This document shows positions 1,407 through 25,247 of a DNA stretch of 64,000 nt, piece by piece. The DNA lies in IMG/VR virus record IMGVR_UViG_3300033068_001142, positions 112,262 to 176,261 of that record. One strand, given 5' to 3'. Made by a program: the position numbers and the translations under genes. The DNA comes from a virus. Taxonomy: Duplodnaviria > Heunggongvirae > Uroviricota > Caudoviricetes. Position 1 is the stretch's first letter; the number at the start of each line of letters is the position of its first letter. The notes below the pieces were generated by a model. The model worked only from the letters and a program-made list of their open reading frames with translations, had not been told where the DNA came from and did not search any database.

Positions 1407-2588
1407 ATGGCAACAAATGTTTATGGTAATGGATTAAATAGTACAGCTGGTGCAAATACAATTGTACATTTCTATGATAGAGCAGGTATTAAAGCTGCTA
1501 ATGCAATTAATGTGTACGGGCAGTTCGCATCTAAAAAAGATATGCCAACTAAATTTGGTAAAACGTTTAAGATTTCAAAATTCTTACACATGTATGACAG
1601 ATCAGTTAATGATGCTGAATTCGCTGCAAAAGGTTTTATGACAGCTAGAACTGCTGATGAGGTTTCATTAGCTTTAACTAATGCATCATTATCTGAAGGT
1701 GCTGGAGCGGTTAATAAAAGATCGTTACAAAAAATTACAGTTGAAACAACATTAGCTAGATATGGTGAAATGATTGATTATACTGATGAAGTTGATTTAT
1801 TCTCAGAAGATTACATTCAAGTAAAATATAGAGAAGAATTAGGTGAGTTAGCTAACTCAAGAATGGAAGATTTAGTTCAATTAGATATGTTAGGTACATC
1901 AACTGTATTATATTCTGGTGCTGCTACTTCAAAAGGTACTGTAGGTGCTGAAGCTGTTGCTGATGGTTCTACTGATGCTACTGTTAAGATTTCTTATGAC
2001 TTAATTAGAAAAGCAGTTAAAAAATTAACTAGAAATAGAGCTAGAAAAAATACTACATTAATTACTGGATCAACTAAAATTGATACTAAAACTGTAGCTA
2101 AATCATACTTTGCAATCATTGATGCAGATGTAAAAACTGACTTAGAGAACTTAGTAAGAGGGACTTCTTATGAGAAAGAATTTGCTTATGTACCAGTTCA
2201 AAAATATGCTGATGCAACTAATATTGCAGATGGTGAAGTTGGATCAATGTATGAAGTAAGATTCATCGAATCTGAAAGAGCAGTAGTATATGCTGGAAAA
2301 GGTGCAACAGTACCAGCGGGGTATACAGGAACATTAGCTTACACTGGAACAATTGGTTCAGGTGCTAAATTTGACGTTCACGCAATTTTATTCCCAACTG
2401 AAGGTGCATTCGCAACTGTTGGATTAAAAGGTCAAGGTAAAATTAACTTCAAATCTAAATCTCCAGAAGAAGTAGAATTAGTTAATCCATACGGAACAAC
2501 AGGTTTCTTCTCATATAATTTCTTCTATGCAGGAATTATCTTAGAGCCTGAGAAGTTATTAGCAGTATACTGTGGAGCTTCTAAATAA
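1407..2588 (+). CDS. Major capsid protein, N4-gp56 family
   Basis: 393 aa; strong RBS (GAGGA); N4-type motifs (ARYGEMIDYTDE, GEVGSMYEVRFI, NPYGTTGFFSYNFFYAG); strongly biased codons. Confidence 0.85.
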   Translation: MATNVYGNGLNSTAGANTIVHFYDRAGIKAANAINVYGQFASKKDMPTKFGKTFKISKFLHMYDRSVNDAEFAAKGFMTARTADEVSLALTNASLSEGAGAVNKRSLQKITVETTLARYGEMIDYTDEVDLFSEDYIQVKYREELGELANSRMEDLVQLDMLGTSTVLYSGAATSKGTVGAEAVADGSTDATVKISYDLIRKAVKKLTRNRARKNTTLITGSTKIDTKTVAKSYFAIIDADVKTDLENLVRGTSYEKEFAYVPVQKYADATNIADGEVGSMYEVRFIESERAVVYAGKGATVPAGYTGTLAYTGTIGSGAKFDVHAILFPTEGAFATVGLKGQGKINFKSKSPEEVELVNPYGTTGFFSYNFFYAGIILEPEKLLAVYCGASK

Positions 2589-2593
2589 TAACT

Positions 2594-2606
2594 GAGCCTT
2601 TGGCTC
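2594..2606 (+). terminator. Short hairpin after the capsid gene (possible weak terminator or stabiliser)
   Basis: GAGCC-TTT-GGCTC just after the MCP stop; no clean U-tract. Confidence 0.3.
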
Positions 2607-2665
2607 GTTATTATCTTAATAAAATAAAATAAAATAAAACTAAAAACCATAAAGGAATAGTATAA

Positions 2666-3178
2666 ATGGCAACAATCGAAGAATTAAAACAAGAAGCAAC
2701 TGAATTAGGTATTAGCTTCAATCAAAACATAGGTGTAGATAAACTACAAGCAAAAATAGATGAATTTTACAAGTCACAAGAGACTTCTGGTAACGAAATC
2801 ATGCAAGCTGTTGCGAAGCAAGAAGCTGCTGAAAAATCAGAAGAGAAATCTGCTGTGAAAGGTAAAGAGGCTGCTATTATCAACTTACATAAGTTTGCTA
2901 TTGATGCAGAAACTGAAGCAAGAAAAACTAGAGTAGTTATTATAACTGATAATGATCAAAGAGAAAACAATCAAACAACTGTAGCAGTAGTTAATTGCTC
3001 TAATATTTATTTTGACTTAGGTACTGCATACATTCCATTGAATGTTCCAGTTGAAGTTAAAGTAGGACACATTAATGTGTTAAAAGAGACTGAGATTCCG
3101 TTACATGTTAAAGATCCAAAGACTGGGTTAAATTCGTTAGCTATGAGACCTAGATACGCAGTAGCATACCAAGATTAA
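2666..3178 (+). CDS. Head-associated protein (N4 gp55-like)
   Basis: 170 aa; N-terminal LKQEATELGISF...IGVDKLQAKI motif; position directly after MCP. Confidence 0.5.
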   Translation: MATIEELKQEATELGISFNQNIGVDKLQAKIDEFYKSQETSGNEIMQAVAKQEAAEKSEEKSAVKGKEAAIINLHKFAIDAETEARKTRVVIITDNDQRENNQTTVAVVNCSNIYFDLGTAYIPLNVPVEVKVGHINVLKETEIPLHVKDPKTGLNSLAMRPRYAVAYQD

Positions 3179-3194
3179 ATAGTAGATATATAGA

Positions 3195-3227
3195 ACCCAC
3201 TTGTCAAATTGATAGGTGGGTTTTTTT
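3195..3227 (+). terminator. Rho-independent terminator
   Basis: ACCCAC-ttgtcaaattgatag-GTGGGT followed by a T-run. Confidence 0.75.
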
Positions 3228-3249
3228 ATGTCTATACAAAGGAGAATGA

Positions 3250-3600
3250 ATGAGTAAGTTTGTGTTAAATAAAGGTATGAGTAATGAGTTTATTATTACT
3301 ATAAAGCAAAATGGTACAACATTACCTATGGAGATAATGGACACAGATACCTTTGTAGCTAAGTTACAGAAGTTGAGTGATGATAGTGTTGTAGCTACTC
3401 CTACAGTTAGTGTTGTTAGTAAACCTAATGGACAAATTAAGGTTATGTTTACTAGTGGGATGGTAAATGGGTTAGATGGTAGTAAAGGTGATAAAGCAGA
3501 TGGGTATTATGCGATTGCTACGTACAAGTTGTCGATTGCTTGTAGTACTAGTAATAATGGTAAATTTGTAGCTAAGGTTAAAAAGGTATATGTAGAATGA
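3250..3600 (+). CDS. Putative beta-rich virion/tail protein
   Basis: 116 aa; RBS AAGGAG; stop overlaps the tail fibre start. Confidence 0.4.
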   Translation: MSKFVLNKGMSNEFIITIKQNGTTLPMEIMDTDTFVAKLQKLSDDSVVATPTVSVVSKPNGQIKVMFTSGMVNGLDGSKGDKADGYYAIATYKLSIACSTSNNGKFVAKVKKVYVE

Positions 3601-10807: not shown

Positions 10808-11239
10808 ATGGGAAATAGTATTCTAAACAAGAATAATATAGATGTTACTGATTTAAAAAATATGGGGTATACTGGTAATCTTGACAGTTTTACAGATCAG
10901 TCTATGGTAGATAACTTAAGCATGATGCAACCTAAACAGAGTATTAATAGCTACACAGAATATGCAAACTCTCCAGGTATGTTTGGATTGAGCAATGGAG
11001 CATGGAATAACATGGGACAATTGAGTGGATTAGCTGGTACTGCATTTAATGTGTATGATAACTTGTTTGGTAATAAAGCTGATATGTATAAAACACAAAT
11101 GAGTGCTATGAAGCAGAATATGGCTAATATTGATGAAGATAGAGCTAATCGTAAAGCATTTGTTGGTAACATTGGTAGTGGATTTAATAAAGCATTAGGT
11201 AGTGGATTAGCTGCATCTGGTTCTACTGTAAAATTATAA
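10808..11239 (+). CDS. Small putative ejection/internal virion protein
   Basis: 143 aa, Gly/Asn/Met-rich, no Cys; RBS AGGAG. Confidence 0.4.
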   Translation: MGNSILNKNNIDVTDLKNMGYTGNLDSFTDQSMVDNLSMMQPKQSINSYTEYANSPGMFGLSNGAWNNMGQLSGLAGTAFNVYDNLFGNKADMYKTQMSAMKQNMANIDEDRANRKAFVGNIGSGFNKALGSGLAASGSTVKL

Positions 11240-11247
11240 GGGATAAT

Positions 11248-13395
11248 ATGGCTGGATATAGAACAGAACAAATAAATATTGGGAGTATTGCTGCTCCTGA
11301 TGTTGGTAAAGCATTAATTGATTATGCTGGTCTTACGAATGATTACTATCAACAAGGGCTAAGTAACACTAAAGCTGGAATTGAATTAGCTAGACAACAA
11401 GTTGCTGATCAAAGATCTGCTGAGTTGTTTAATAGACAAACTAATGAGTATAATAGAGAGGTTGGTCTAAGAAAAGCTAAGCAAGATATTACTAAAGATT
11501 TCATGAACAATCAATCTGCGTATGGTGGACAACCACTACATGATAGATTAAATGATGCAATTAACGCTGAATCACAAAGAAGACTGAGTACTCCAGAGGT
11601 TGGTGAATTAGATGCATTAGTTGCTAGACAAGATAAAGGTGAGACATTAACACCTCAAGAATTAGCTAGAAAAGATGAAATTGCTAAAAAAATTACATTC
11701 AGCCCAGAGGAATCAACTAGGTTACAAAAAGAATCTGAGAGCATAGTTCCATTTCAAGAAGATGCAAAAGCAATGCTTGCTGCTAAATATGCAGCTGCTG
11801 GTATTGATAATGCTCATGCGTTAGCTGCAGATGCTACTGGTGGACTAATTAGTAGAGCTGCGTTGCAAGAACAAGCTGATAAGAATAGGGAAGTTAATCA
11901 AAAGTATTATGATGAGTTACTGAAAGCTAGAAGAGAATATGGTAAAGATTTAATTGAAGTAGATAAGGTTAATGCTAAAGCTGAAAATGATAAAGCTGAG
12001 AAAGTATTTGAGATGCTTAAAACAGTATATGGTATTGGTGGAGGTACGGGTTCTGGTAGTTCAGGTGGTGGAATTGGTGGAGTAACATTAGCTGATGCAC
12101 AGAAGGCAGTCGAAGGATTAGATCTTGGATGGTCAGATACTGGAGACGCCTACAAATTACTTAACAAAGGAATTGCTGAAGGATTAACTCCTGGTCAAAC
12201 ACTAAAAGCAATAAAAAATGCTAGAGATGTTGGAGTTACAGCTGGAATTTCAGCTAGTAAAATAGATGAAAAATTGTTTGATGCTCAAATAGAGAATGCT
12301 AAAAAGTTTGGTATTCCTGGTCAAGCTGGATATGATGTTACTAAAATAAGTAATAGATTGAATGAAGCTGATTATGCTCCTACATACATTCCTAGAGAAA
12401 GAGTTGGGTATGATACTAAAGAAATGGATGCAAGAATTGCTAGGAATTTGCCGTTCTTACACGCTGGGCAGCCTGAAGTACCAACTAAGGGTGGAGTTGA
12501 AAGAAATATAGTTACTAGAATGCCAGATAGTTTAGTAAAATCTGAAGGTGTAAAAACTAACCCATATGATGATGGTAAAGGTAATATTACAGTTGGAGTT
12601 GGGTATAATATGAGTGGTAAGTCTCGATCAGAGATTGAAGCAGACTTCAAAGATGCAAACATTCCAGTTGATAAAATTGATAAATTACTAAAAAGAGATG
12701 GGACACAACTAACTACTAAAGAAGTTAGTGACTTAGCTAATGTATCATATGATAAGTACGGTGTAAAAAAACTAGCAAATATAGGGATTGATATCTCAAA
12801 ACTTAACCCAGCACTGGCTGAAATAGGGGTATCACAAGCGTTTAGAGGTGATATTGTAAAAAATGGTGAAGGGTACAGAGGTAAATTATATAACTACTTA
12901 AAAGATAATGACTTAGCTGGGATGGTTGACTATATCCAGAATAATAATGTTCCTAAAGAAGTAAAGACACGTTTAAACAATGTGATCGGTATTGGAAAAG
13001 CTGGAGCAGAAGGTCCTATAGGAGAAGAACAATATAAGTACAATAAAAGTAGATTGGATAAGTTACTAGTTACAGATAATAAAGCTGAATTAGATAAATT
13101 GTTAGCTTCACACCCAGCACCTACTAAAGATGTGTTAGATAGAGTAACGGAATTAAGTGCACCTCAGAATGTAGTCACCCCAGGCGAACAAATTAAAACA
13201 TCAATGAGAACATCAGGATTAGGACCAATGTCTGAATCATCAAAACAACAATGGAATGTTATAAGTAATATTCTAAAATCATCAACTAAAATTCCAAGAG
13301 ATGTCTTAGTTGATGTATATAATAAATACCAAGAGAATATTGGTATGCCATTCGCAGAGTTTGTTAAACAATACACTCCAGGCGGAAACAGGTAA
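11248..13395 (+). CDS. Internal virion protein with phage-lysozyme-like domain
   Basis: 715 aa; LVKSEGVKTNPYDDGKGNITVGVGYNM resembles the E-x8-D-x5-T catalytic region of T4-type lysozymes. Confidence 0.55.
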   Translation: MAGYRTEQINIGSIAAPDVGKALIDYAGLTNDYYQQGLSNTKAGIELARQQVADQRSAELFNRQTNEYNREVGLRKAKQDITKDFMNNQSAYGGQPLHDRLNDAINAESQRRLSTPEVGELDALVARQDKGETLTPQELARKDEIAKKITFSPEESTRLQKESESIVPFQEDAKAMLAAKYAAAGIDNAHALAADATGGLISRAALQEQADKNREVNQKYYDELLKARREYGKDLIEVDKVNAKAENDKAEKVFEMLKTVYGIGGGTGSGSSGGGIGGVTLADAQKAVEGLDLGWSDTGDAYKLLNKGIAEGLTPGQTLKAIKNARDVGVTAGISASKIDEKLFDAQIENAKKFGIPGQAGYDVTKISNRLNEADYAPTYIPRERVGYDTKEMDARIARNLPFLHAGQPEVPTKGGVERNIVTRMPDSLVKSEGVKTNPYDDGKGNITVGVGYNMSGKSRSEIEADFKDANIPVDKIDKLLKRDGTQLTTKEVSDLANVSYDKYGVKKLANIGIDISKLNPALAEIGVSQAFRGDIVKNGEGYRGKLYNYLKDNDLAGMVDYIQNNNVPKEVKTRLNNVIGIGKAGAEGPIGEEQYKYNKSRLDKLLVTDNKAELDKLLASHPAPTKDVLDRVTELSAPQNVVTPGEQIKTSMRTSGLGPMSESSKQQWNVISNILKSSTKIPRDVLVDVYNKYQENIGMPFAEFVKQYTPGGNR

Positions 13396-13459: not shown

Positions 13460-16400
13460 ATGCCATTTATAGATAACATGGTAACAAGCTACTCAGAGCT
13501 ACCTGAAAACTTACAAGTAAAAGGGCTAGGATTAGCTTCTTCAACAAATACACAAAATAAAATAAATAATTTAAATACTAAAGTACAAGATAAAATTAAT
13601 AACTTAAATCAAACTAGAGGACAAATAATTGCTCAAAATATTGATGCAATGGATAAATCTGGATATGAGTTAAGAATGTTACAAGAGATCCCAGATGGAG
13701 ATAGCCCATTATTAGTTGGGGATACTGAAGGAAGAAGGCTTGGAGGAGATCCAACAATCCCAAAAGATCCAGCAGGCTGGGTAGACGCTCCTGAAGTGTA
13801 TCATGGTAAATTTAGTGAAACTCCTAAAGAACAAGCAAGAATTGAAAGACAAAGACAACAGTATGGATTATCATCTACAGATGAGGTTTTCACTGATGGA
13901 GAAAAAGTTAGATTAGAAACATTATATAACTTAATTGGAAGACCAATTGGTCCAGATGGTAAAGAATGGACTCCAGGCCCAATAGAAAAAGGTTCTCACA
14001 TATGGTTAGGTGATAAAAATAACCCATTAAATATTCCAGTAATGGTAAATGAAAGAGGTGATTTTGCTAACGGAAGACCAGTAAGTTACTTAATGGATGA
14101 AAATGGGAAGATAAATCAAAGTTCTCAATTAGCAAGAGCTGGGTACTTATCTCAACCAACTACGAATAATAAAGTTAGTACTGGAAGTAGTACATACGCT
14201 AAAGCAATGGCTGATAAGGTTGCTGAAGAGAATGAAAATACGTATGTTGGAAATTTAGTTGATGCAACTCAAGCTGGTCTAGGAACATTCGCAGCTAGAA
14301 CAGCAGATACAGCTGTTGATGCATTAATTAGAGGAGCTAAAAGTGTAACTACTAACGAAGCAGTTAATAAATTTATTGAAGGCGAGTACGTTAAAAATGG
14401 TGACTTTATAGGTGCTGATAAATATAAAGAAACTAAAGAGTATGGATTTGATGATAAAAATATAGTAGATGCTCAAAATAAAATAAGTAAGGCGCTAGAA
14501 ACTAAGAGTTTTATGGATACAGTAAAAGCGGTTGGAGCTATAGCTAAAGCTGGACCGGAAGTATTACTAACTAGTTCTGGAGATATGGCAGCTGCGTTTG
14601 CTGGACCTGCAGGGTGGTTAGTATGGGCTGGAAATTTTAATAATGAAATACTAGAGGAAAGAGCAAAGGAAGTTGGAGGAGTAGATAACTTACAAGCTAA
14701 TGATAGATTGATAGCTGGTGCTACTGCTATTCCTGCAGCGATGTTAAACCAATTTACTAAAGGGAATGTAGGACTGACAGAAGTTACTGGAGCGATTAAA
14801 GAAGCTGTTGGTAAAGGTGGTTTAGAAGTTGCTAAGCAATTAGGTAAAAAGATTGCAATTGGTGCAGTAGGTGAGGCTGCAGAAGAAGCAACACAAGAAG
14901 CATTAGTTGAAATCGGTAAGAAATTAGAAACTGCAAACCAAAAAGATATTGGTAGTGATAAATTCTGGGAACAAGTAATTACTGCTGGAGCCTTAGCTGC
15001 TGGAGCTGGTGGAACTATGAGTACATTAGCAGGTGGTAAAGAACTACTAGAAAGTACTAAAAGTAATGTAAGCCTAGAAAATCCTCCTAAAGATACTCCT
15101 AAAGGTAAACCAGAAGTGTCTGATGAAGGATATACTGGATTAACTGAAGATGAGAAAATAAACCTGAGAGAATCAATTGATAACTTCGTAACTAATACTG
15201 AAAGTACAATTGTACCACTACATGAGAAAATTAGTACTATCAGAGATATGGAAGAGAAAGTTCTTAGATTAGATGATAGAGAACCTAACAAAGAGAAATT
15301 GAATGCGCTTATCAAGCATACTAAAGATGAAATAGTTAGAGGATTAGAGAGTGCTGATGATATTGATGAGTTTACGAGAGTACTTGGATCTAAGCAAGGA
15401 TTCTTAGATTTATTAGAAGATGTAGTTGAAACTACTAATAATAATTTCTCAGAACCACTAAGAATTAACTTAGAAAAGATTGCAGGAAGTTTTGGAATAA
15501 ACTCAGAGGACTTCAGTAGAATTAGAAAAGATATGGGTGAAGTTGAGATAGAAGCTACTAAGAGTGCTAGAGGGTACCTAACTCAAGGTAAGGCGTTAAG
15601 AAGTATTCTAGGAGCAGTAGAACCTGATACAGCAAAAGCTGAAGAGTTATTGAAAAGAATGCAAGGGTTTGAAGCATCACAACATAAATGGGTTGATAAA
15701 TATGATGCTGCAGTTAAAGACTTCCAAAAACAGATTGCAGAGTATAATGCAGATGTTAAGAAAGGATTAGGTAATATAGCATCAGAACCTGCTAAGTACC
15801 CATTCACGATTAGTAAGAACTCAAAGTTTGAGTTAAATGCTATTAAGTTAGATGATGGAACGTATGTGTTTAATAATGCGTCGGATAAGATTAGAGATAG
15901 AAAAGTACAGAATATTACTGGTATTAAACAAGAATTAGAGAAATCTAAAGAGTTACTGCAAAAAGCTAAGGTTGATCCTAGTAAAACTGGTGTACAATAT
16001 TCTCCAATAATTGACCCAGATTCGGTTAGTGATAATGCTATTAAAAAAGCAGTAACTAAAACAAAAAGAATGTTTGATGCATTCAAAGTTTCAGGAATCA
16101 TAACATCTGAGATTACGAGTACTAGAAATAAAGCTATTGTAAATGGTAATGAACAAATAGTTAATAGAAAAGAGTATAATAAAGATGATACGGTGGCAGT
16201 TATGTTACCAGTAGTTAGAACACAAGCTGATTTTGATAAGGCTAGAAAAGAGATAGTAAGACAAGATAGTCAATTAAAAAAATTAATTAAAGCTGCACAA
16301 GAAGCTGGAGCTACTATCATTCTAGATCCTGCGTTAAGAGAAACTAAAACTAAAAAGTTACCTAAGTTTAAAGTTACTAGTACAGTTGATGGTAAGAAAG

Positions 16401-19400
16401 TTACTAAAGAAATGTCGATTAGAGATGTATTAGCTGAACAATTAACTAGGTATAGTGGTAAAGGTTTAGAGTATAAATCACATATGGGAACATCACCTAA
16501 TGTGTTTAAACCTGCAAGTGTTGTTGAAGAAGAAAGTAAAAGTAGAAAACAAAATAAGTTAGAGAAAGATAAATTAGAATTAATTAAAGAAGGTATTAGA
16601 AATAATGCTTATAATAAGTTCCTAGCTGGTAAAGAGATAGTAATGACTGAAGGCTTAATTGAGACATTCAAAACTAAAGACCGATTAGATAATTACTTGA
16701 ATAATAGAAAAGAAAAAGAAATTGAAGAATATAAAAAGAATGTTAAAGAGTATAATAGACTAGAAAGAAAAGTAAATAGTGTCTTAGAAGAGGCTGAAAC
16801 AGCTCAAGATATAATTACTTCGAATAGAATGATTGAAGCAGCAGACGACTTAATAGGTAAAATGAATAAACTTAGTGATAGACTAAAAGAATTAAGTGGT
16901 GTTAAAGAGTTTGCTCAGGAAGAGATTGAAGTAGAAGAAGAGATTGCTGAGAATAGTAAGAACATATTAGCTGAGTATAAAGAATTGAAAGAATTACTTA
17001 GTTCTGGTGACTTCACAGAGGAGGAAGCTAAGCAAGAACTAAAAGAGTTAGAAGATAGAATGCCTCAAAATGTTGTTAGTAATATACTAGATAATAGCTA
17101 CTCAAAAGGTGCAGAACCAATAGTAATTGAATCAAAAACTAGTAAACAAAATAAGACTACTGGAGAAACTGAAGTAACAACTAGTAGTAAGAAGTATTTC
17201 CTAGATATTAATGATATTGTAGAAAAGAAGAAGATTACTTCATTAGATATGGTGGAAGTTAATGATATGTTTGATAATTTGCAAACTAAAGATTACTTCA
17301 GTCCGCTAAGTTCTAAAGAGTATATCGAGGAAGCTAGAAGAGTATTAGATGAGAAGATAACTAAAGTTAGCAAGCGAAGTAAGAATTTTACTGTTGACCA
17401 ATTAACAATGAAAAATTCACCAGCATATAGTTTGCTGTTTAATAAAGATGGTGGTATTAATGATACTACTGTTATGGCTGTCAAGCTAGCATTAGATGAG
17501 TATATTACATATAAGAGTAAGAACTTGTCACCGTTCTATAAAACTAAGGGTGAAGTGGCTCAAATGAATGGGGTATTAGAGCATCAAGTTAGTCATGAAC
17601 AATATGAGTTGTTGAAAGATAAGGGAGTATTCCAAAAGACTTTCAACGATGAAGTTGGTAAAGCAATCATGAGTAAATTAGGTTTTGGTAAAAAGAATGG
17701 TGTTGAAGATGAGGTGTATAATAGATTAGTTGCTGAGATGGGACAACTAGCTAGAATAGTAGGAGTTGAGTTAGATATATTAGTTGAAGATGAAGTATTG
17801 GCAGCTGATTACGCTGAAGTTGCAACTAAGAAGAAAAAAAGTGGTAGTCCTGAGAAGAGTATTTCAAAAGATATTAAAATAGGATTTGTTAAATTAAATG
17901 TAAATGAAAATGGTGAACTTCCTACAGAAATATTAAATGTAATAAGAGATGATTATAAAGCAGTTCATGATATCATCAGTGATGAGTCTGTGTTCAGAAA
18001 AGAACCTAAGTTCTTACCAATAGGTAAAAAGAATAGAAGATACGTTAGAGAGCAAGTTGCTAAAGATATAGCAGGAGCTAAAATTCCTAAGGGTATTAAT
18101 GAGTTTGTAGGTGCTGAGAAAGCGATAGATAACTTGATTGATATAGAATGGAAAATAAATGATGAATTATTAGATGGAGTATCTAATATGGATCAAGATG
18201 TTCTTAAGAAATGGATGGGATATAAATCTAAAGAAGATATGGAGAGTATGTCATTTGAGGCAAGAGAAGCTGCTGTATCATCAAATAGAGATATAGAGAG
18301 TAACCTTCAAGAGTTGCTTAACTTAAGAGAAGATGCTCACAGAACATTATGGTTTGATTGGTTCTACACATCAAATGGAAGATATATGATGGATAGTAAT
18401 ACGGTTAATCCACAAACTGAGAAACAGTTACACAGATGGTTAATTACACCGAGTAGTCATAAAATAGAATATAATAGAACTAATACAGGAAGCTTCATAG
18501 ACTCAAAAGGTAAAAAATTAGATGCAGAAGTTAAGTATGCAATTGCTCAATCAATGGGATTTGCAGTAGATAAAAAGTCTACGAATAAGATTAATGAGTT
18601 AGCTGATAAATTACTAGAGATGTCTGCAGAAGAATTAGCTGAAATAAAACATACTGTCTTAGTTGAAGGTAAACATTATGAGAAAAATGGTGTTAAAATA
18701 GAACCAGAACATATTGGACACTTCTTACAAGGGATGGATTTCCTAGAGAAAGCACTGACTGGAAACAAGTTTAGTAGTTCATTAAGTGCAGAATTTGATG
18801 CGGTAACAAGTGGACTAGGAATTAAGATGCTTCAGATGCCAATACTAAGAAGTTTAGATAAAGATAAATTGAGAGCTCCTAATGGTACAGTATGGTACTG
18901 GTTGAATAAGGTTGGTGTGTTTAAACCTGAACAATTAAACGGTATTAATAGTATGAATGATGTACTAGATTCAGTAGGGTTTTATGGGGATGATAAGAAG
19001 TTCTACGATAGTTATCAATCACTAGCTGTTGATACTAAGATAGATTCGAGGGATATTAAAGCTAATGCAGAAAAATCAATATACAAGAATGTACAGCTTG
19101 GTAATATTAAGGAAGTATACGATAGTATTGAGAAAGTATTACCTAAACTGGATGAAGATGGTTCAGTTAGTAGTGCATTAAGAACATTGTTTAAAGATCC
19201 GTTCATGACGTTTAACTACTCAGCAGGATTAAGGTCAATTAGAGGTTCGTTAGCTAGAAATATGGTTGGAAAGTTATTGAATGAAGTTGCTAAAGCTAAT
19301 TCAGATTACAAAGAAGTTGCTGAGTTCTTAGCTAAACAAGTTAGAGTTGATGGAGCAAAAATAGACGTTAATCAATTAGTTGAAATGTTAAGAACTGAGA

Positions 19401-20392
19401 AAGCGTCAAGTATTATGATTGGTGATGTTAGTCTTGAGGATGTATTATTGAAGACCGTTGATAGTTCGTATGGAGCTAAAGTAGAAGAAATTATGAAGAA
19501 TAATTTCGGAGAATTCATGGCAGCTCACGAGAATATTAATAGTGCATTCAAAGTAATGTTTAGTGTATTTAATAATAAGTATAAAAAAGCAATTAGTGAA
19601 GTTCCAAGTGGTGAACTAACTAATAAGAAGAAGTTAGAAATAATTGAAGACTTAAGAAAGTACTTCCCAGTAATTAAGGGTCCGTTATCGGTAGAATTAA
19701 ATGAAGGTGTTCATGTTTACGCTACAAAGACTGCTGAGCCTAAAGACGAAAGTGTTAGACAAGATCCTGCACAAACATATATAACTGATAGTGAATATGA
19801 GAGTGTTAAAGCTAACTACATGATTAAAATGTTTGAAGAAGCAATGAATGCTGGATCAGTAATTCCAGTGCATTATATTGATGCTGCGATGATGGCACAA
19901 TTAACTAAAGGGAAAGATATTACTGCGATTCATGATGCGATTATCCCACCGCTTAATAAAGCTAAAGATAGAATCAAAGAGTATAATAAAGCAATGGTAG
20001 AAATTGGTAGAAGTTATAGTATGATTGAAGCTATGAATGATATGCTAAATAGAGTAGAACTGACTCCTGAAGAGATTAAAGAACTAAATGCAACAAAGAT
20101 TAATGTTAAAATGGAAGATGGCGAGTATAAAGACATTGGACTTGGTAACAATTTTAATAGAGTTAAAAAAGAGTTTGGTAAAACTGCGAAGCTTGTTAGA
20201 GAAGGTAGAGAGAAGTTATTTGAAGAGTTTGATAATGATGGAGTTGTGATTGGTCATATGGCTGGAATGCCTGATACAATGTGGAGTAATGAGGTTACAC
20301 TTAAAGAAGAACATAAGGGAAACATAGATATAATAACACCATCAGAAGTATTCGAAAAGAATATAAACAAAATAATAGAATGTAAGGAATAA
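13460..20392 (+). CDS. Virion-encapsidated RNA polymerase (N4 vRNAP-like), N-terminal and catalytic part
   Basis: T7/N4-type single-subunit RNAP motifs: A (EFDAVTSG), B (RTLFKDPFMTFNYSAG), C (IHDA); also NGRYMM; 2310 aa. Confidence 0.9.
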   Translation: MPFIDNMVTSYSELPENLQVKGLGLASSTNTQNKINNLNTKVQDKINNLNQTRGQIIAQNIDAMDKSGYELRMLQEIPDGDSPLLVGDTEGRRLGGDPTIPKDPAGWVDAPEVYHGKFSETPKEQARIERQRQQYGLSSTDEVFTDGEKVRLETLYNLIGRPIGPDGKEWTPGPIEKGSHIWLGDKNNPLNIPVMVNERGDFANGRPVSYLMDENGKINQSSQLARAGYLSQPTTNNKVSTGSSTYAKAMADKVAEENENTYVGNLVDATQAGLGTFAARTADTAVDALIRGAKSVTTNEAVNKFIEGEYVKNGDFIGADKYKETKEYGFDDKNIVDAQNKISKALETKSFMDTVKAVGAIAKAGPEVLLTSSGDMAAAFAGPAGWLVWAGNFNNEILEERAKEVGGVDNLQANDRLIAGATAIPAAMLNQFTKGNVGLTEVTGAIKEAVGKGGLEVAKQLGKKIAIGAVGEAAEEATQEALVEIGKKLETANQKDIGSDKFWEQVITAGALAAGAGGTMSTLAGGKELLESTKSNVSLENPPKDTPKGKPEVSDEGYTGLTEDEKINLRESIDNFVTNTESTIVPLHEKISTIRDMEEKVLRLDDREPNKEKLNALIKHTKDEIVRGLESADDIDEFTRVLGSKQGFLDLLEDVVETTNNNFSEPLRINLEKIAGSFGINSEDFSRIRKDMGEVEIEATKSARGYLTQGKALRSILGAVEPDTAKAEELLKRMQGFEASQHKWVDKYDAAVKDFQKQIAEYNADVKKGLGNIASEPAKYPFTISKNSKFELNAIKLDDGTYVFNNASDKIRDRKVQNITGIKQELEKSKELLQKAKVDPSKTGVQYSPIIDPDSVSDNAIKKAVTKTKRMFDAFKVSGIITSEITSTRNKAIVNGNEQIVNRKEYNKDDTVAVMLPVVRTQADFDKARKEIVRQDSQLKKLIKAAQEAGATIILDPALRETKTKKLPKFKVTSTVDGKKVTKEMSIRDVLAEQLTRYSGKGLEYKSHMGTSPNVFKPASVVEEESKSRKQNKLEKDKLELIKEGIRNNAYNKFLAGKEIVMTEGLIETFKTKDRLDNYLNNRKEKEIEEYKKNVKEYNRLERKVNSVLEEAETAQDIITSNRMIEAADDLIGKMNKLSDRLKELSGVKEFAQEEIEVEEEIAENSKNILAEYKELKELLSSGDFTEEEAKQELKELEDRMPQNVVSNILDNSYSKGAEPIVIESKTSKQNKTTGETEVTTSSKKYFLDINDIVEKKKITSLDMVEVNDMFDNLQTKDYFSPLSSKEYIEEARRVLDEKITKVSKRSKNFTVDQLTMKNSPAYSLLFNKDGGINDTTVMAVKLALDEYITYKSKNLSPFYKTKGEVAQMNGVLEHQVSHEQYELLKDKGVFQKTFNDEVGKAIMSKLGFGKKNGVEDEVYNRLVAEMGQLARIVGVELDILVEDEVLAADYAEVATKKKKSGSPEKSISKDIKIGFVKLNVNENGELPTEILNVIRDDYKAVHDIISDESVFRKEPKFLPIGKKNRRYVREQVAKDIAGAKIPKGINEFVGAEKAIDNLIDIEWKINDELLDGVSNMDQDVLKKWMGYKSKEDMESMSFEAREAAVSSNRDIESNLQELLNLREDAHRTLWFDWFYTSNGRYMMDSNTVNPQTEKQLHRWLITPSSHKIEYNRTNTGSFIDSKGKKLDAEVKYAIAQSMGFAVDKKSTNKINELADKLLEMSAEELAEIKHTVLVEGKHYEKNGVKIEPEHIGHFLQGMDFLEKALTGNKFSSSLSAEFDAVTSGLGIKMLQMPILRSLDKDKLRAPNGTVWYWLNKVGVFKPEQLNGINSMNDVLDSVGFYGDDKKFYDSYQSLAVDTKIDSRDIKANAEKSIYKNVQLGNIKEVYDSIEKVLPKLDEDGSVSSALRTLFKDPFMTFNYSAGLRSIRGSLARNMVGKLLNEVAKANSDYKEVAEFLAKQVRVDGAKIDVNQLVEMLRTEKASSIMIGDVSLEDVLLKTVDSSYGAKVEEIMKNNFGEFMAAHENINSAFKVMFSVFNNKYKKAISEVPSGELTNKKKLEIIEDLRKYFPVIKGPLSVELNEGVHVYATKTAEPKDESVRQDPAQTYITDSEYESVKANYMIKMFEEAMNAGSVIPVHYIDAAMMAQLTKGKDITAIHDAIIPPLNKAKDRIKEYNKAMVEIGRSYSMIEAMNDMLNRVELTPEEIKELNATKINVKMEDGEYKDIGLGNNFNRVKKEFGKTAKLVREGREKLFEEFDNDGVVIGHMAGMPDTMWSNEVTLKEEHKGNIDIITPSEVFEKNINKIIECKE

Positions 20393-20396
20393 GTAA

Positions 20397-23300
20397 ATGG
20401 GATGCTCAGCACAAGACCAAATAAGAGGGTATAAAGAAGTTCATAAAAAAATTACTGAACTTAACCCTAAAGTAGATAAAATTAGATTGCAGTTTGCAAT
20501 TAATGATTACTGGTTAAACTTAAAAGATAATATTATGAACAGTCATGAAAAAGATGTATATAAAAAATTAGTTGAGCAAACAGATGGTGTAATTAGTATT
20601 AGTCATAGTGATACAAAACAAACTAATACACCATTAGTATTCGTTAAAGAAATTGGTAATGAGTATGTAGTTTACTTAGATAATGGACAGAATTATACAT
20701 TTGAAAAAGGTAAAGTTAAAAGTAAGACAACTGCTTCTGGTAGAAGTGTGTTGCTTCCTTCAATGGAATTAACTAAGTACTTAACTAAAGAGCCAGAAGG
20801 AGAACTGTACTCAAAAGGTAGTACTAGTAAGGCTGATACGAAGTATGAAGAGTATGCTAAAATAATTGAAGATACTGTAAAAAGTATATCAAATATAATT
20901 GTTAGGAAAGATGATGGTTTAATAGTTAGAGAATTACTAGAAGGTGTTGGTAGTTTTATAGCTGGAAAGTTTGAAGAGAAAAAGGGTATTATTAGAGTAG
21001 CTGACATCCCAAGCAAAGAGAAAACAAATAAAATAGTTATTGATTACCTTGAGAAATTGTACATGGATGAAATATCAGATTTGGATTTATCAGATGAAGA
21101 ACTAATTGAGTACATAAAGAAAGATCCAAAGCGTAATAAGTATAATGAAGTGCAAGAAGCATACTCTGAAGCAGTCCAAGAGAAAGCGACAGAGTTTCAT
21201 AGTAAACTAAATTTAAATGCTGCTCAGTTACATGAGTTTATTCACGCAGGTGCTCATGTATTCATGAAAAATAATCCAAACGCACCAGAGACTAAAAGAA
21301 TTGAAGAGTTGTATAAAAAAGTACAAAGTACTAGATATAACCATATATTCTCAAAAGCATTAGGTGATGAACAATATTGGAGATCAAACATTGATGAGTT
21401 CATAGCTGAAGCACTAAGCAATCCAGAATTTATGGTAGCCTTGAATAGTATTCCAGTAAAAGAAATGGATAGACTAAGTACTGTGTTTAAAGAGCTAGTT
21501 GACACACTAATGAAAATACTGGGGTTCAAAAATGAAGATACAGTTTACAAATACTTATTAGATGGGTTTATGGCTATCGTTGAGAGTCAGCAAAGAATAA
21601 CTGAAGAAGAAAGAAGTATGGTACATCCTCGTAACTCAAAAGATGCTATTAACCTAAAAGAAGAATTAGATAGAGTACTAGGCAGTAAAGAAGAACCTAA
21701 AAAGAAAATAAACTGGAATGATTTTGAACGAGTTGAAAAAACTGTTCATAAGAATGTAGAAAGTATGCAAAAGTTACTAGAAGAATTACATGTGTTGGGT
21801 GGTAAGAAAGAAAGTGATTCTCACTTAAAGTATTTAAAAGATTTGATTGGTAGCTTAGATCAAGATTTCTTAACTAATATGAATGTGTATATTACAACTA
21901 AAGCTAAAGCATCTGCAGGTATGTTAGATAGAAGTTCAATGGGATTATGGATATCTAAGGCTGGTAAACTAGCTGGTAATCAACAAAGTGAAGCAGAAAT
22001 ATATGCTCATGAAGTTATTCATAGTTATGTTAGATATGCATTTGACTTAGCTAATAAGGGAAATATTGAAGCTAGAAAAATTGTGAGAGAATTAGAGTAT
22101 GTACTAAATACTGCTAGAAAGAATACTAAATGGCAAGATTTATTACCAAAAGAAAGTATAGATAGTAAGTTAGAAGAGAAGAATGCTAAAGAAATGTATG
22201 ATTACATATTTAATAGTAAACATGCAGAAGAAGAGTTCATATCACATGTATTAACTAATCCAATAGTTATGGAAGTTGTTAAGAATATTCAAGTAAAAGA
22301 GAAGGAGAAAGTAACTACGTTAGGTGCTAGAATTAAGAAATTATTTCAAACGATTATGGATTTACTATCAGGAAATTACGAGTTTAAAGATAGAGATAAA
22401 AATGTATATGAAGCCACTAGAGATTTGACTTTCAGATTAGCTGAGTATAATAATAAAGCAGTAGTTGAACGAAGAAAAAATATAAATGTAATGGAAAAAG
22501 TTACACAGTTCATAAATAGTACTGATGAAAAAGCTGGAGAAGTATTAGAAGATTTCATTAATAAACATGTACCAAAAGATGTTGCAGGTAAGAAACCAAA
22601 AGAACCACTAGCAAAAGCTAAATGGATGACACAAGTATTGACTAATATGATAGTTAACCCAGTGTATAGAAATCAATTGAGTAAGTTAGCTACGGTGTAT
22701 GGAATGCCTCCTGAAGGAACATTACAAACAATAATGAGAGATTTCACAGACCAAGATGACTTAAGTAAGACTGTGGATTTCCTAGCACTAGGTTCAGATA
22801 GAATTGATGGATTCAAGATGTCACTGTTAGGTACAATGAAACAAGCAGTTGAGACTGGGTTTAAAGAGAAATTGACTAAAGCTCAGAAGAAGTCATTGAC
22901 TAGAGTAATAATGGATACTGATTTCGAGATATTAGAGAAGAAGTATTCTACAAATGACCTAAGAAGATTATTGAAAGATAAAGATTACTTAGAAACTCAG
23001 ATAGGAAGAATTAAGCATAAGCTAGAGAAGAATGAGGGTGACAAAGCTAATTACTACAAATCACAAGCTACAAGCTTAGGTTACTACTTAGCAACTGGTA
23101 AAGCAAATATTGCACTAGGATTTAATGCACTGAACATCGCTAGAGGATTAATGACAAATGATTACAAGTCTCCTAGTAAAGAGTTAGTAAATGATATTGA
23201 TGTGCTAGCTACATTAGTTGCGTTGAAATATACAGATAGTTCACATAAGCTAGAAGTTGAGAAATTAATGAGAAGTGAGAGTAAGACACAGCTTAATAAG

Positions 23301-25247
23301 GGTGTCAAGAACTTAATTGAGATTGCTAGAAATTTAAAGAAAGAAGCTAAAAATAGTTTATTCCTGGACAGTAGCACGCACATAGTAAAAGGGTATACGA
23401 AAGAAGTATTCGATGATAGAATAACAATGGAGATAGATACAATTGCTAATGAGCAAGAGATGAAATCAAGAGGGTTTAAATTAGTTAAAAAATTAGATAA
23501 GAATCCTGCAGATACTTCACCACAAGAGTTTGGAATGTATGTATCGGAGTCATTCACGACATCAGATTGGCTAAGAACATCAGCTAGATTAACTAAAATG
23601 CACTCAAAGGGTACAAGCTTAAAAGATTTAATGTATGCGTCTGAAGATCAGTATGCTGGGATAAAACATAAAATTATTAAGACTAACTTAGATACTGAGA
23701 GAATTAAGTTGATTAAAAAGATGATGAAGGGTGAGTTTGATGTAACTAAAGTTGACTACGGGGTTGCTCCGGTATTAGACCAGGATGGGGCAGTAGTTGA
23801 TTATAGATATATGATGGACAAACAATCTAAGGAAGATTACTTAGGTATGGGAACAGATGTAGCAGATATTGTAGCGAGAACTAAAGCACAGATATTTGAT
23901 AAAACATCAACTAAACAACATAATGATAAGTTATTAGATATAATTAAAAAAGATGCTGAAGAAAATTACAATGATGGTTTAGTTACTGGAAAGAATGATA
24001 AACAATATATATTAATTAGTCCAGATTCAAATGATGAAAAAATTAAAGACTTATGGAATGTACTTCCAAAGAATTTCAAAGAAGAAGCAATGAATAGTGA
24101 GTACAAAGGTTTGCCGGTTAGACGAGATCTAATGAGTGCATACTTCGGATATAGACATTTAAGTGTAACTGATATTCCTATCTTAAAAGATATTACTCCT
24201 GCAATTATTAAGAATGCTGTTAAGTTAGCTGAAACGATTTGGATGGAATTCATCAAAATGGCTAAAGCCGATGTATTAATTAAAATGCCATTCGTGTTAG
24301 TTGGGAATATTATTAGTAATATTGTGTATGCAATTAATACAGGGACAAATCCAGCTGAGATTGGTAGAATGTATTTAGAGAGTACAAGAGAAGTTAGAAC
24401 TTATCTTAGAAAGCATAGAGAGTTAGTTGAGTTACAAATAGCTAAAGATACTGGAAATATTCAGAAGAAAGATATTGGAAGAATTCCATCACTAGAAAGA
24501 GAATTAAGGAATAGTCCAATTCATGAATTATATGAACTTGGGATTTATCAAGCTATCGTTGAAGATGTCAACAAAGATGAGTACACAGGAACTAATAGAA
24601 TTAGTAAATGGTATAAAGATAAAACTGAAAATATGCCTCAGATACTGAAAGATGGTGTAAATTGGATGTACTTGACGGAAGATACTGCTTATTATAAGTT
24701 CATGCAAGAAGTAATGCAAATGAGTGACTTAATTGCAAGAGATGTTGAGAATAGAAAACTAAAGAATATTACTGAACAACAAATTAATGGTAAGATGAAG
24801 ATTCCTAAATGGTTTACAGAGAAGTATCCTGAAACTAAAGGAAGAAAACTTACTAAGGGTGAAATGAATACATTTAAACAAGAGTCTGATAAAAAAAGAC
24901 TAGATACAATATTAAATGCATTTATCAACTATAATAAACCTTCGGGTTCGTTAGAAGAGTATTTGAATAGAGTTGGTTTGATTATGTTTACTAAGTATGC
25001 AAAAAGAATCCAATTACAAATTGCTAAAACAGGAACGAAATATCCGATAAAAACATTGATGGTTGTCTTAGGGCAATCACTGTTTATAGATTTCGAATCA
25101 ATCCAAGATCAATCAGTACTTACAAGAAGTTGGTATAATTTAGGGTTTGGTCAAGGAGACTTGTTACCAGGTAAAAGCTTATGGGAGTATATTGAACATG
25201 AGTTCACTCCTCCAATCTTCAGACCTACTACGTATAAACTATTTTAG
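20397..25247 (+). CDS. Separately encoded C-terminal part of the virion RNAP, with two zincin-like HExxH motifs
   Basis: 1616 aa; starts 4 nt after the vRNAP stop; LHEFIHAG and AHEVIHSY each followed by a downstream E-F motif; size matches the C-terminal region of giant N4-type vRNAPs. Confidence 0.65.
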   Translation: MGCSAQDQIRGYKEVHKKITELNPKVDKIRLQFAINDYWLNLKDNIMNSHEKDVYKKLVEQTDGVISISHSDTKQTNTPLVFVKEIGNEYVVYLDNGQNYTFEKGKVKSKTTASGRSVLLPSMELTKYLTKEPEGELYSKGSTSKADTKYEEYAKIIEDTVKSISNIIVRKDDGLIVRELLEGVGSFIAGKFEEKKGIIRVADIPSKEKTNKIVIDYLEKLYMDEISDLDLSDEELIEYIKKDPKRNKYNEVQEAYSEAVQEKATEFHSKLNLNAAQLHEFIHAGAHVFMKNNPNAPETKRIEELYKKVQSTRYNHIFSKALGDEQYWRSNIDEFIAEALSNPEFMVALNSIPVKEMDRLSTVFKELVDTLMKILGFKNEDTVYKYLLDGFMAIVESQQRITEEERSMVHPRNSKDAINLKEELDRVLGSKEEPKKKINWNDFERVEKTVHKNVESMQKLLEELHVLGGKKESDSHLKYLKDLIGSLDQDFLTNMNVYITTKAKASAGMLDRSSMGLWISKAGKLAGNQQSEAEIYAHEVIHSYVRYAFDLANKGNIEARKIVRELEYVLNTARKNTKWQDLLPKESIDSKLEEKNAKEMYDYIFNSKHAEEEFISHVLTNPIVMEVVKNIQVKEKEKVTTLGARIKKLFQTIMDLLSGNYEFKDRDKNVYEATRDLTFRLAEYNNKAVVERRKNINVMEKVTQFINSTDEKAGEVLEDFINKHVPKDVAGKKPKEPLAKAKWMTQVLTNMIVNPVYRNQLSKLATVYGMPPEGTLQTIMRDFTDQDDLSKTVDFLALGSDRIDGFKMSLLGTMKQAVETGFKEKLTKAQKKSLTRVIMDTDFEILEKKYSTNDLRRLLKDKDYLETQIGRIKHKLEKNEGDKANYYKSQATSLGYYLATGKANIALGFNALNIARGLMTNDYKSPSKELVNDIDVLATLVALKYTDSSHKLEVEKLMRSESKTQLNKGVKNLIEIARNLKKEAKNSLFLDSSTHIVKGYTKEVFDDRITMEIDTIANEQEMKSRGFKLVKKLDKNPADTSPQEFGMYVSESFTTSDWLRTSARLTKMHSKGTSLKDLMYASEDQYAGIKHKIIKTNLDTERIKLIKKMMKGEFDVTKVDYGVAPVLDQDGAVVDYRYMMDKQSKEDYLGMGTDVADIVARTKAQIFDKTSTKQHNDKLLDIIKKDAEENYNDGLVTGKNDKQYILISPDSNDEKIKDLWNVLPKNFKEEAMNSEYKGLPVRRDLMSAYFGYRHLSVTDIPILKDITPAIIKNAVKLAETIWMEFIKMAKADVLIKMPFVLVGNIISNIVYAINTGTNPAEIGRMYLESTREVRTYLRKHRELVELQIAKDTGNIQKKDIGRIPSLERELRNSPIHELYELGIYQAIVEDVNKDEYTGTNRISKWYKDKTENMPQILKDGVNWMYLTEDTAYYKFMQEVMQMSDLIARDVENRKLKNITEQQINGKMKIPKWFTEKYPETKGRKLTKGEMNTFKQESDKKRLDTILNAFINYNKPSGSLEEYLNRVGLIMFTKYAKRIQLQIAKTGTKYPIKTLMVVLGQSLFIDFESIQDQSVLTRSWYNLGFGQGDLLPGKSLWEYIEHEFTPPIFRPTTYKLF

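Follow-up and report, generated by a model that had tools for sequence, protein, structure and literature searches.

The stretch analysed here, referred to as the window, comprises 64,000 nucleotides (nt) of a tailed virus (Caudoviricetes) in IMG/VR (record IMGVR_UViG_3300033068_001142, positions 112,262 to 176,261), and its subject is a virion RNA polymerase (vRNAP) that, judged by sequence comparison, belongs to the type known from phage N4 and is divided between two adjacent open reading frames (ORFs). The upstream protein, piece A, ends in ..IIECKE*, and the downstream protein, piece B, begins MGCSAQ. An earlier reading of the letters alone, referred to as the original prediction, had claimed that each half possesses a single cysteine (Cys) located at the split; exact counting agrees, with one Cys in A (residue 2308) and one in B (residue 3). 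The features of the locus, in window coordinates, are as follows.

13460..20392, plus strand: piece A of the split vRNAP, 2310 amino acids (aa), with an N-terminal domain (NTD) and a T7-like RNA polymerase (RNAP) domain.
20397..25247, plus strand: piece B of the split vRNAP, 1616 aa, with a junction N-domain and a C-terminal domain (CTD).
20381..20383, plus strand: TGT codon of Cys2308, the sole Cys of A and the third residue from its C-terminus.
20403..20405, plus strand: TGC codon of Cys3, the sole Cys of B; M1 and C3 are invariant in alignment A1.
20330..20389, plus strand: C-terminal docking tail of A, residues 2291-2310, IITPSEVFEKNINKIIECKE.
20384..20388, plus strand: Shine-Dalgarno (SD)-like motif AAGGA, 8 nt 5' of the ATG of B, overlapping the final K and E codons of A.
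20390..20396, plus strand: stop codon of A (TAA) followed by the 4-nt spacer GTAA, in which a TAA in frame for B abuts the ATG.
20397..20777, plus strand: junction N-domain of B, residues 1-127.
18788-18814, 19190-19228 and 19925-19942, plus strand: stretches of A that align to the N4 polymerase core in a profile alignment.

The junction reads GAA TGT AAG GAA TAA gtaa ATG GGA TGC, which agrees with the 4-nt gene separation in the original prediction. A has its own stop and B its own SD-like motif and ATG, defining two separate ORFs, and the reading frame of B is +1 with respect to that of A (20397 - 13460 = 6937). Given this offset and the TAA that precedes the ATG in the frame of B, A and B cannot be fused by a single base change or indel; the locus is a clean two-gene arrangement, beyond what one sequencing error could make. 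Cys makes up 0.93% of the proteome of the entire 205-kb record, corresponding to ~36 expected residues in the 3,926 residues of A and B, where two are observed, and the chance that both of two random Cys residues lie within three residues of the facing ends is ~2.4e-6. Among the 223 ORFs of the record, both signatures are combined only in two vRNAP-like pairs.

Profile searches place the two pieces consecutively along one protein family. Residues 688-2199 of A match positions 680-1880 of PHROG 2206 (virion RNA polymerase; E 2.9e-63), residues 200-1585 of B match positions 2030-3390 of the same family (E 7.9e-165), and residues 1122-1450 of B also match residues 2023-2370 of the N4 vRNAP chain 11fw_A (E 1.4e-16). 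When 96 C-terminal regions of A-type proteins are combined into a profile, it aligns to residues 1344-2088 of N4 gp50 (E 2e-20; envelope to 2122), and the aligned region includes the stretches around the N4 catalytic aspartates: ..AEFDAVTSG.., ..FKDPFMTFNYSAG.. and ..AIHDAI.. of A align with EADGVTNG, AKNPLTITIYGSG and IFDG of N4, which we take, following the N4 literature, to be motifs A, B and C. In this alignment A has the character of a T7-like single-subunit polymerase with its catalytic Asp, and the exclusion of Cys typical of N4-like vRNAPs is preserved, with both exceptions located at the break, whereas the single ~3,500-aa polypeptide of such enzymes is replaced by two ORFs. On these sequence comparisons, A and B together are an N4-type vRNAP, representing a split variant rather than a canonical member. 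Searches of Pfam with A or B gave no real match, phmmer of A against PDB gave no match, GenBank phages gave none by DNA or N-terminal protein searches, and a degenerate junction pattern found no match in IMG/VR.

The position of the break is informative with respect to the architecture of the N4 enzyme. N4 gp50 consists of three globular units with extended linkers between them, and the RNAP-CTD linker, residues 2102-2123, is flexible and not visible by cryo-EM; the protein has been pictured as beads on a string, having to pass a tail of ~35 Angstrom (2026 structure paper, PMC13434306). Since the last 42 positions of the A-type profile extrapolate to N4 residues ~2120-2130, the break in the window is placed in this linker. 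According to the profile alignment, A is the NTD plus the RNAP and B the CTD, the cut lying in or beside the flexible RNAP-CTD linker of N4 gp50, and the division at the RNAP|CTD boundary is made by adjacent ORFs on the same strand, which is the AltAD45-type arrangement described below. In relatives consisting of three pieces, the first break extrapolates to approximately N4 730-970, near the NTD-RNAP boundary, although this mapping is approximate. The original prediction had described the N4 vRNAP as free of Cys, and direct counting finds none in the 3500 aa of gp50; in a survey of Schitoviridae (n=191), Cys amounts to 0.00075% in vRNAPs vs 0.865% in proteomes (DEV paper, PMC11445570).

A split vRNAP is already known from cultured phages. 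The Alteromonas phages vB_AmaP_AD45-P1 to P4 (AltAD45 phages), with genomes of ~100 kb, were described in 2013 as having a divided vRNAP, the stop codon being verified by polymerase chain reaction (PCR) and both polypeptides being detected on gels (Garcia-Heredia et al. 2013, PMC3821669). Among cultured phages, they are the nearest relatives found for the C-terminal 800 residues of B (32% identity), and in AltAD45-P1 the pieces comprise 2495 aa ending in ..HCKQ* and 1409 aa starting with MTIC.., with one Cys each. The authors took cysteines as a sign of a protein not being injected, and their paper neither reports Cys at the facing termini nor proposes a link (PMC3821669). In RefSeq (NC_021532.1; L025:1564-13288), the split vRNAP has no coding sequence and the 11.7-kb stretch is labelled 'potential frameshift'. 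A full-text literature search found no description of paired terminal Cys residues, or of any covalent link, in split vRNAPs; end-to-end Cys coupling is apparently undescribed.

Relatives of the window provide the most extensive evidence. The original prediction had proposed checking whether homologous split vRNAPs keep both terminal Cys residues, and the comparison shows that they do; the pair at the split is real, whereas its framing as a property of a single phage proved too narrow, as it follows a family-wide rule that includes three-piece chains and inserted cargo proteins. A terminal Cys pair is present at 24/24 true junctions from 20 loci, where the upstream Cys lies 0-5 residues from the C-terminus, the downstream protein begins M-x-C or rarely M-x-x-C, the intergenic gap ranges from -11 to +9 nt, and an SD-like motif occurs in 22/24. 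The first 58 homologs of B are ~24% identical overall, yet all 58 begin MGCS.QDQI and contain exactly one Cys, and their contigs have upstream proteins that end in ..KIECKE* with their only Cys there. Junction types of unrelated sequence display the same pattern, including ..NCKK*/MPC, ..GCGE*/MTC, ..TSC*/MKC, ..DEGC*/MNC and ..GWCK*/MDC, as well as ..ECK*/MSC, ..EGCK*/MVC, ..CTI*/MSC, ..CKTK*/MAC and ..VCKGK*/MSC. Middle pieces possess Cys at both ends and nowhere else (the RNAP pieces of L002, L014 and L020, and pieces of L005, L007 and L022), and the outer ends, namely the N-terminus of the first piece and the C-terminus of the last, lack it; the one apparent exception, the 'MCYNTC' that begins a protein of L011, probably reflects a wrongly called start.

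Larger samples of each half lead to the same picture. Among 102 homologs of the last 460 residues of A (23-73% identity), 95 have a Cys within the last four residues, which is the only Cys in 94 of them; the seven without any Cys comprise six proteins of 3,036-3,628 aa and a seventh that looks truncated. At least three of the six long proteins (P0107, P0109 and P0115) recur among the fused CTD representatives. For the other half, a CTD profile searched against 1.84 billion representatives yielded 3,404 homologs, and the counts that follow concern the best 150 of these. Split-size CTDs have a Cys within the first six residues in 107/119 cases (position 3 in 80, position 4 in 20), and it is the sole Cys in 102 of the 107, while one-piece relatives of at least 3,000 aa are free of Cys in 19/19 cases (68,130 residues). 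Across the sequences compared, the terminal Cys pair is thus strictly tied to chain breaks throughout the family and absent from one-piece forms.

Two explanations at the level of nucleic acid or data quality have to be considered against this background. The Cys codons might be side effects of start, stop or ribosome-binding sequences, given that the last codons of A overlap the SD-like motif, or the split might be an assembly error, as the RefSeq flag on AltAD45-P1 could suggest. Such an origin appears extremely improbable: the two signatures coincide in the record only in the vRNAP-like pairs, and, with Cys otherwise purged, a neutral Cys would not persist across 20-25% identity. Moreover, the Cys codons (TGT/TGC), the stops (TAA/TAG/TGA), the gaps and the placement of the Cys codon with respect to SD-like motif, stop and start all vary while the Cys itself stays, which indicates that selection acts on the protein. 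Identical junction architecture is found on the independent contigs L003, L004, L005, L016, L022 and L023, and the same architecture on dozens of contigs, together with PCR resequencing of the AltAD45 stop (PMC3821669), excludes assembly error as a general explanation.

The second possibility is a ribosomal hop, in which the two Cys codons would act as take-off and landing sites of translational bypassing and yield a fused polymerase. Matched codons of one tRNA do flank a short gap with a stop and an SD-like motif, and T4 gene 60 is a bypassing precedent with a similar layout. A hop is nevertheless highly improbable, as an ATG lies two (sometimes three) codons 5' of the downstream Cys in ~100/119 of the split-size representatives and the SD-like motifs at nearly all junctions argue for independent initiation. 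Only 0-3 codons separate the upstream Cys from the stop, natural fused forms have no Cys at the equivalent site, and a free polypeptide of CTD size is present in AltAD45 virions (PMC3821669).

Beyond the Cys residues themselves, the two facing ends appear to constitute a matched pair of docking elements. The tail of A has invariant K, I, P, F, N, N, I and C residues (alignment A2). Identity of A to P0063, which ends in ..DEGC, is 62% as far as residue 2292, yet from residue ~2282 onwards the sequence of A is similar to the tails of phages that share only ~22% identity in the rest of the polymerase; BLAST similarity to those phages is limited to the last 20-31 residues. Correspondingly, the first 129 residues of B are 59-77% identical to the tail-sharing phages (BLAST), while its remainder is 94% identical to P0003, whose head differs (MNC..), and the N-domain is 50-77% identical in relatives in which the rest of the CTD is ~24% identical (alignment A3). 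Because both elements are shared across phages otherwise ~22-24% identical, the tail of ~20-30 aa and the N-domain of ~127 aa move together as a cassette. The same tail is attached to a polymerase piece, a helicase piece and pieces of unknown family. An AF2 model of the N-domain (mean predicted local distance difference test score, pLDDT, 79) contains three helices, a sheet of four strands and, at the end, another helix; fold searches with PDB Foldseek, BFVD and VIA-align returned nothing significant (best Z 6.1, to generic helical hairpins), and ESM Atlas gave no usable match. The idea that the N-domain is a Cys protease, raised by weak papain-like rows (E 0.03), was rejected for want of an invariant His.

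Structure prediction of the complex, which the original prediction had named as a check, passed its controls and placed both Cys-bearing ends at the interface. Residues 1-145 of B with the last 60 residues of A scored 0.61, compared with 0.00 for the best of three controls; in a rough count made with our own alignments, this mark was reached by 58/80 solved complexes and by 2/110 mismatched pairs. The runs share at least 81% of contacts, with a partner pLDDT of at least 48. In the model, helix 5-22 of B is the predicted docking surface for the tail of A; the interface contains residues 41-44, 48-49 and 52-60 of the 60-aa tail along with residues 1-4 of B, and the register is antiparallel (B7 to tail 55-56, B11 to 52-56, B18 to 44-48, and B22 to 42-44). 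The two ends are thus modelled as a helical hairpin with the chain break as its loop and both Cys residues approximately one turn from paired residues, an arrangement that supports binding between them.

Taken together, these observations favour, with moderate confidence, a scheme in which A and B are tied end to end at their terminal Cys residues, most likely by a disulfide, to form one thread for injection. The bond, its chemistry, its timing and its reduction are what we infer from the computed split, Cys rule, linker position and docking prediction. The last ~20 residues of A would form a helix docking antiparallel on the first helix of B, with the break as hairpin loop; docking would bring Cys2308 of A to Cys3 of B, where an inter-chain bond, most likely a disulfide, could form. 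The bonded pair would act as a single, almost linear chain with only short dangling ends (2-3 residues), and across the junctions these ends comprise 0-3 residues after the upstream Cys and 2-4 before the downstream one; position 3 may be the closest to the N-terminus that a Cys can occupy without being exposed as a free N-terminal Cys after Met removal. A covalent tie would be needed because the polymerase leaves the capsid through the ~35 Angstrom tail unfolded or as beads on a string, and non-covalent contacts between domains would not survive unfolding for that passage. The tie would also bring A into the capsid with B, which holds the encapsidation domain, the CTD being the part that N4 requires for encapsidation (cited in PMC3821669). 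Other Cys residues are excluded, as in one-piece vRNAPs, so that wrong cross-links cannot form, and the two pieces would be released when the bond is reduced after entry into the new host, whose cytoplasm is a reducing environment. The staple rejoining the halves that was originally envisaged is supported by every computational check, namely the Cys counts, the homologs, the junctions, the one-piece forms and the complex model.

The main rival to a disulfide, which we regard as unlikely, is a metal clasp in which the two terminal thiolates share an ion such as Zn, together with Glu/Asp or with the Cys pair of a second copy. Cys is a classic metal ligand, E or D occurs at -1/-2 in ~58/96 tails and at +3/+4 in ~30/110 heads, and such a site could form in a reducing cytoplasm with no oxidase, which would suit anaerobic habitats. 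However, the flanking acids are not invariant, and a two-thiolate site would be weak and hard to keep through unfolding in the tail channel. Zinc clasps and hooks (Rad50, CD4-Lck) use two Cys from each partner, whereas exactly one Cys per end fits the need of a disulfide; a disulfide is therefore preferred, as each end provides one Cys and there is no conserved second ligand, neither His nor a second Cys.

Other covalent chemistry, such as a thioester, a thioether, splicing-like joining or a separate modification of each Cys, for example acylation, seems very unlikely. The C-x-x-Q spacing of MGCSAQ is reminiscent of thioester motifs, and Cys is the usual nucleophile of protein splicing. However, C-x-x-Q is confined to the junction type of the window, and there is neither an intein-sized conserved block nor a lipobox or signal peptide; the upstream Cys is placed 0-3 residues before the end and does not open an Int-N segment, and two separate polypeptides in AltAD45 virions argue against complete peptide ligation (PMC3821669). 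Two specific candidates of this kind were tried and rejected: a C-x-x-Q thioester for MGCSAQ, since other junction types lack the Gln, and a naturally split intein, in view of the 0-3 residues after the upstream Cys, a downstream Cys at residue 3-5 and no intein match in Pfam.

Several points weigh against a disulfide-tied thread. The host cytoplasm is reducing, a search of the 205-kb record found no thioredoxin or glutaredoxin gene, and many relatives come from anaerobic gut samples (e.g., a contig filed under a Prevotella metagenome-assembled genome), where the oxidant is unclear; a search of the record for Erv1/Alr sulfhydryl oxidases gave no match, although its control matched no genome and the result informs neither way. 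Within the complex model, the fold of the tail itself is uncertain (pLDDT ~50), and the distance between the sulfur atoms is not readable. Eight of the 119 split-size CTD representatives lack Cys; the three of these that were examined are a scaffold gap, a frameshift-ridden contig and a stand-alone CTD homolog, and the CTD at the scaffold gap in fact begins MSC behind a ..VCKGK* tail. Phylogenetically, on a FastTree of 143 CTDs, a quick tree of very divergent sequences, the fused or split state changes at least 10 times (shuffled labels: mean 18, minimum 15), and Cys arrives with the split in 4-5 of the 7 supported independent contrasts and the reverse is never seen, but the sign test alone is not significant (median p 0.125). 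With the sign test too small and the tree quick, the case for independent origins rests mainly on the many non-homologous junction types.

Two further loci were recorded alongside these comparisons. On an 8.6-kb contig, a CTD homolog of 1398 aa without Cys (L028:422-4618) has a TTG start; its upstream neighbour is a divergently transcribed gene, and the contig shows no polymerase piece on that side. In another relative, an in-frame TGA (L001:1105-1107) interrupts a conserved stretch of the polymerase core (..IHFIDGA*MGS..) with no Cys on either side, and it is probably not a genuine break in the chain but the result of sequencing error, read-through or recoding.

In some relatives, additional proteins are located between the RNAP and CTD pieces.

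L005:6452-9997: superfamily 1 (SF1) helicase (AAA_30, UvrD_C_2), 1181 aa.
L022:44-2149: protein of 701 aa without a Pfam family.
L007:1223-3838: protein of 871 aa without a Pfam family.

All three have Cys only at position 3 and at the C-terminus, an arrangement suggestive of cargo enzymes linked into the ejected chain. It is conceivable, at somewhat less than even likelihood in our estimation, that the terminal Cys forms a general head-to-tail code, by which proteins of the form M-x-C...Cys would join the ejection chain, be threaded covalently and be released by reduction.

The 205-kb record itself consists of two syntenic units of ~102 kb (65-75% nucleotide identity, offset ~102.1 kb), and the contigs of relatives measure ~94-113 kb; the record is probably two related ~100-kb genomes joined in assembly and not a jumbo phage. 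The other unit has a pair of its own that obeys the same rule (unit 1, L024:2109-13585), with a protein of 2122 aa ending in ..DIEGCK* (one Cys) and one of 1703 aa starting with MKC (Cys 3 and 273). In the 1703-aa protein, the match to the vRNAP profile (PHROG) is confined to the last ~140 residues, and BLAST of the window's A and B against this pair gave no match.

Other observations concern B and the neighbours of A. B has two HExxH motifs, HEFIH at residue 279 (21231-21245) and HEVIH at residue 538 (22008-22022); the second is invariant across nine diverse CTD pieces (E534, H538, E539 and H542), and a putative zinc-binding motif in the CTD is mentioned in the DEV paper (PMC11445570). The HEVIH motif of B may be a zincin-like site. 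Directly upstream of A are proteins of 143 aa (10808-11239) and 715 aa (11248-13395), both without Cys; neither has a family in PHROG, and in size, Cys-free state and adjacency to the vRNAP gene they are reminiscent of the ejection proteins, small and large, known from N4 and DEV. In the structural module, a 393-aa protein (window 1407-2588) has a single Cys five residues from its C-terminus (..AVYCGASK*), which its paralog in the other ~102-kb unit keeps (..AVYCAASK*), and which could be another terminal-Cys contact in the virion.

The N4 and DEV papers (PMC13434306, PMC11445570) treat as an open question how a polymerase of 380-450 kDa is packed and how it passes through a tail of ~35 Angstrom. 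A Cys pair at every break implies that continuity of the chain is itself required for packaging or ejection, providing a direct handle on the mechanism. The rule reverses the 2013 reading of cysteines in AltAD45 as a sign against injection and corrects database practice, as in the case of the frameshift flag that RefSeq places on AltAD45-P1. It also offers annotators a test, since true breaks carry the pair and the in-frame TGA, the scaffold gap and the frameshifted contig did not. The coupling code, if true, would be a modular and redox-cleavable way for phages to inject extra enzymes, and if cargo chaining holds, it would amount to a natural protein-delivery device whose docking pair of tail and N-domain might be reusable in protein engineering.

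Compared with known systems, the window shares with N4 gp50 and DEV gp71 (Schitoviridae) the order NTD, T7-like RNAP, CTD and, with N4-type vRNAPs in general, the exclusion of Cys and a gene adjoining Cys-free structural genes on the same strand. In contrast to the single Cys-free chain of 3,400-3,500 aa in N4 and DEV, it has two chains with one Cys at each broken end, and its pieces carry an extra junction domain of ~127 aa and a cognate tail peptide. AltAD45 resembles the window in the RNAP|CTD position of the break and in the terminal Cys pattern, although its junction sequence is of another type. A functional analogy, without homology, is offered by diphtheria toxin and the clostridial neurotoxins, in which a single disulfide holds two chains together during threading through a channel, as the tie proposed here would do. 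In such AB toxins the bond is reduced in the target cytosol and the enzyme released, analogous to the release proposed for A and B; their chains, however, are produced when a protease nicks a single precursor, and the Cys residues involved are internal to a loop, unlike the window, where the chains come from separate genes and the putative bond would join Cys residues at the extreme termini. The docking domains of split polyketide synthases and nonribosomal peptide synthetases provide a second analogy, in which, as in A and B, a short C-terminal peptide pairs with an N-terminal element of the next subunit. These docking pairs set the order of the chain, and cognate pairs are swapped as units, like the cassette of tail and N-domain, but their docking is non-covalent, has no Cys pair and serves catalysis rather than translocation.

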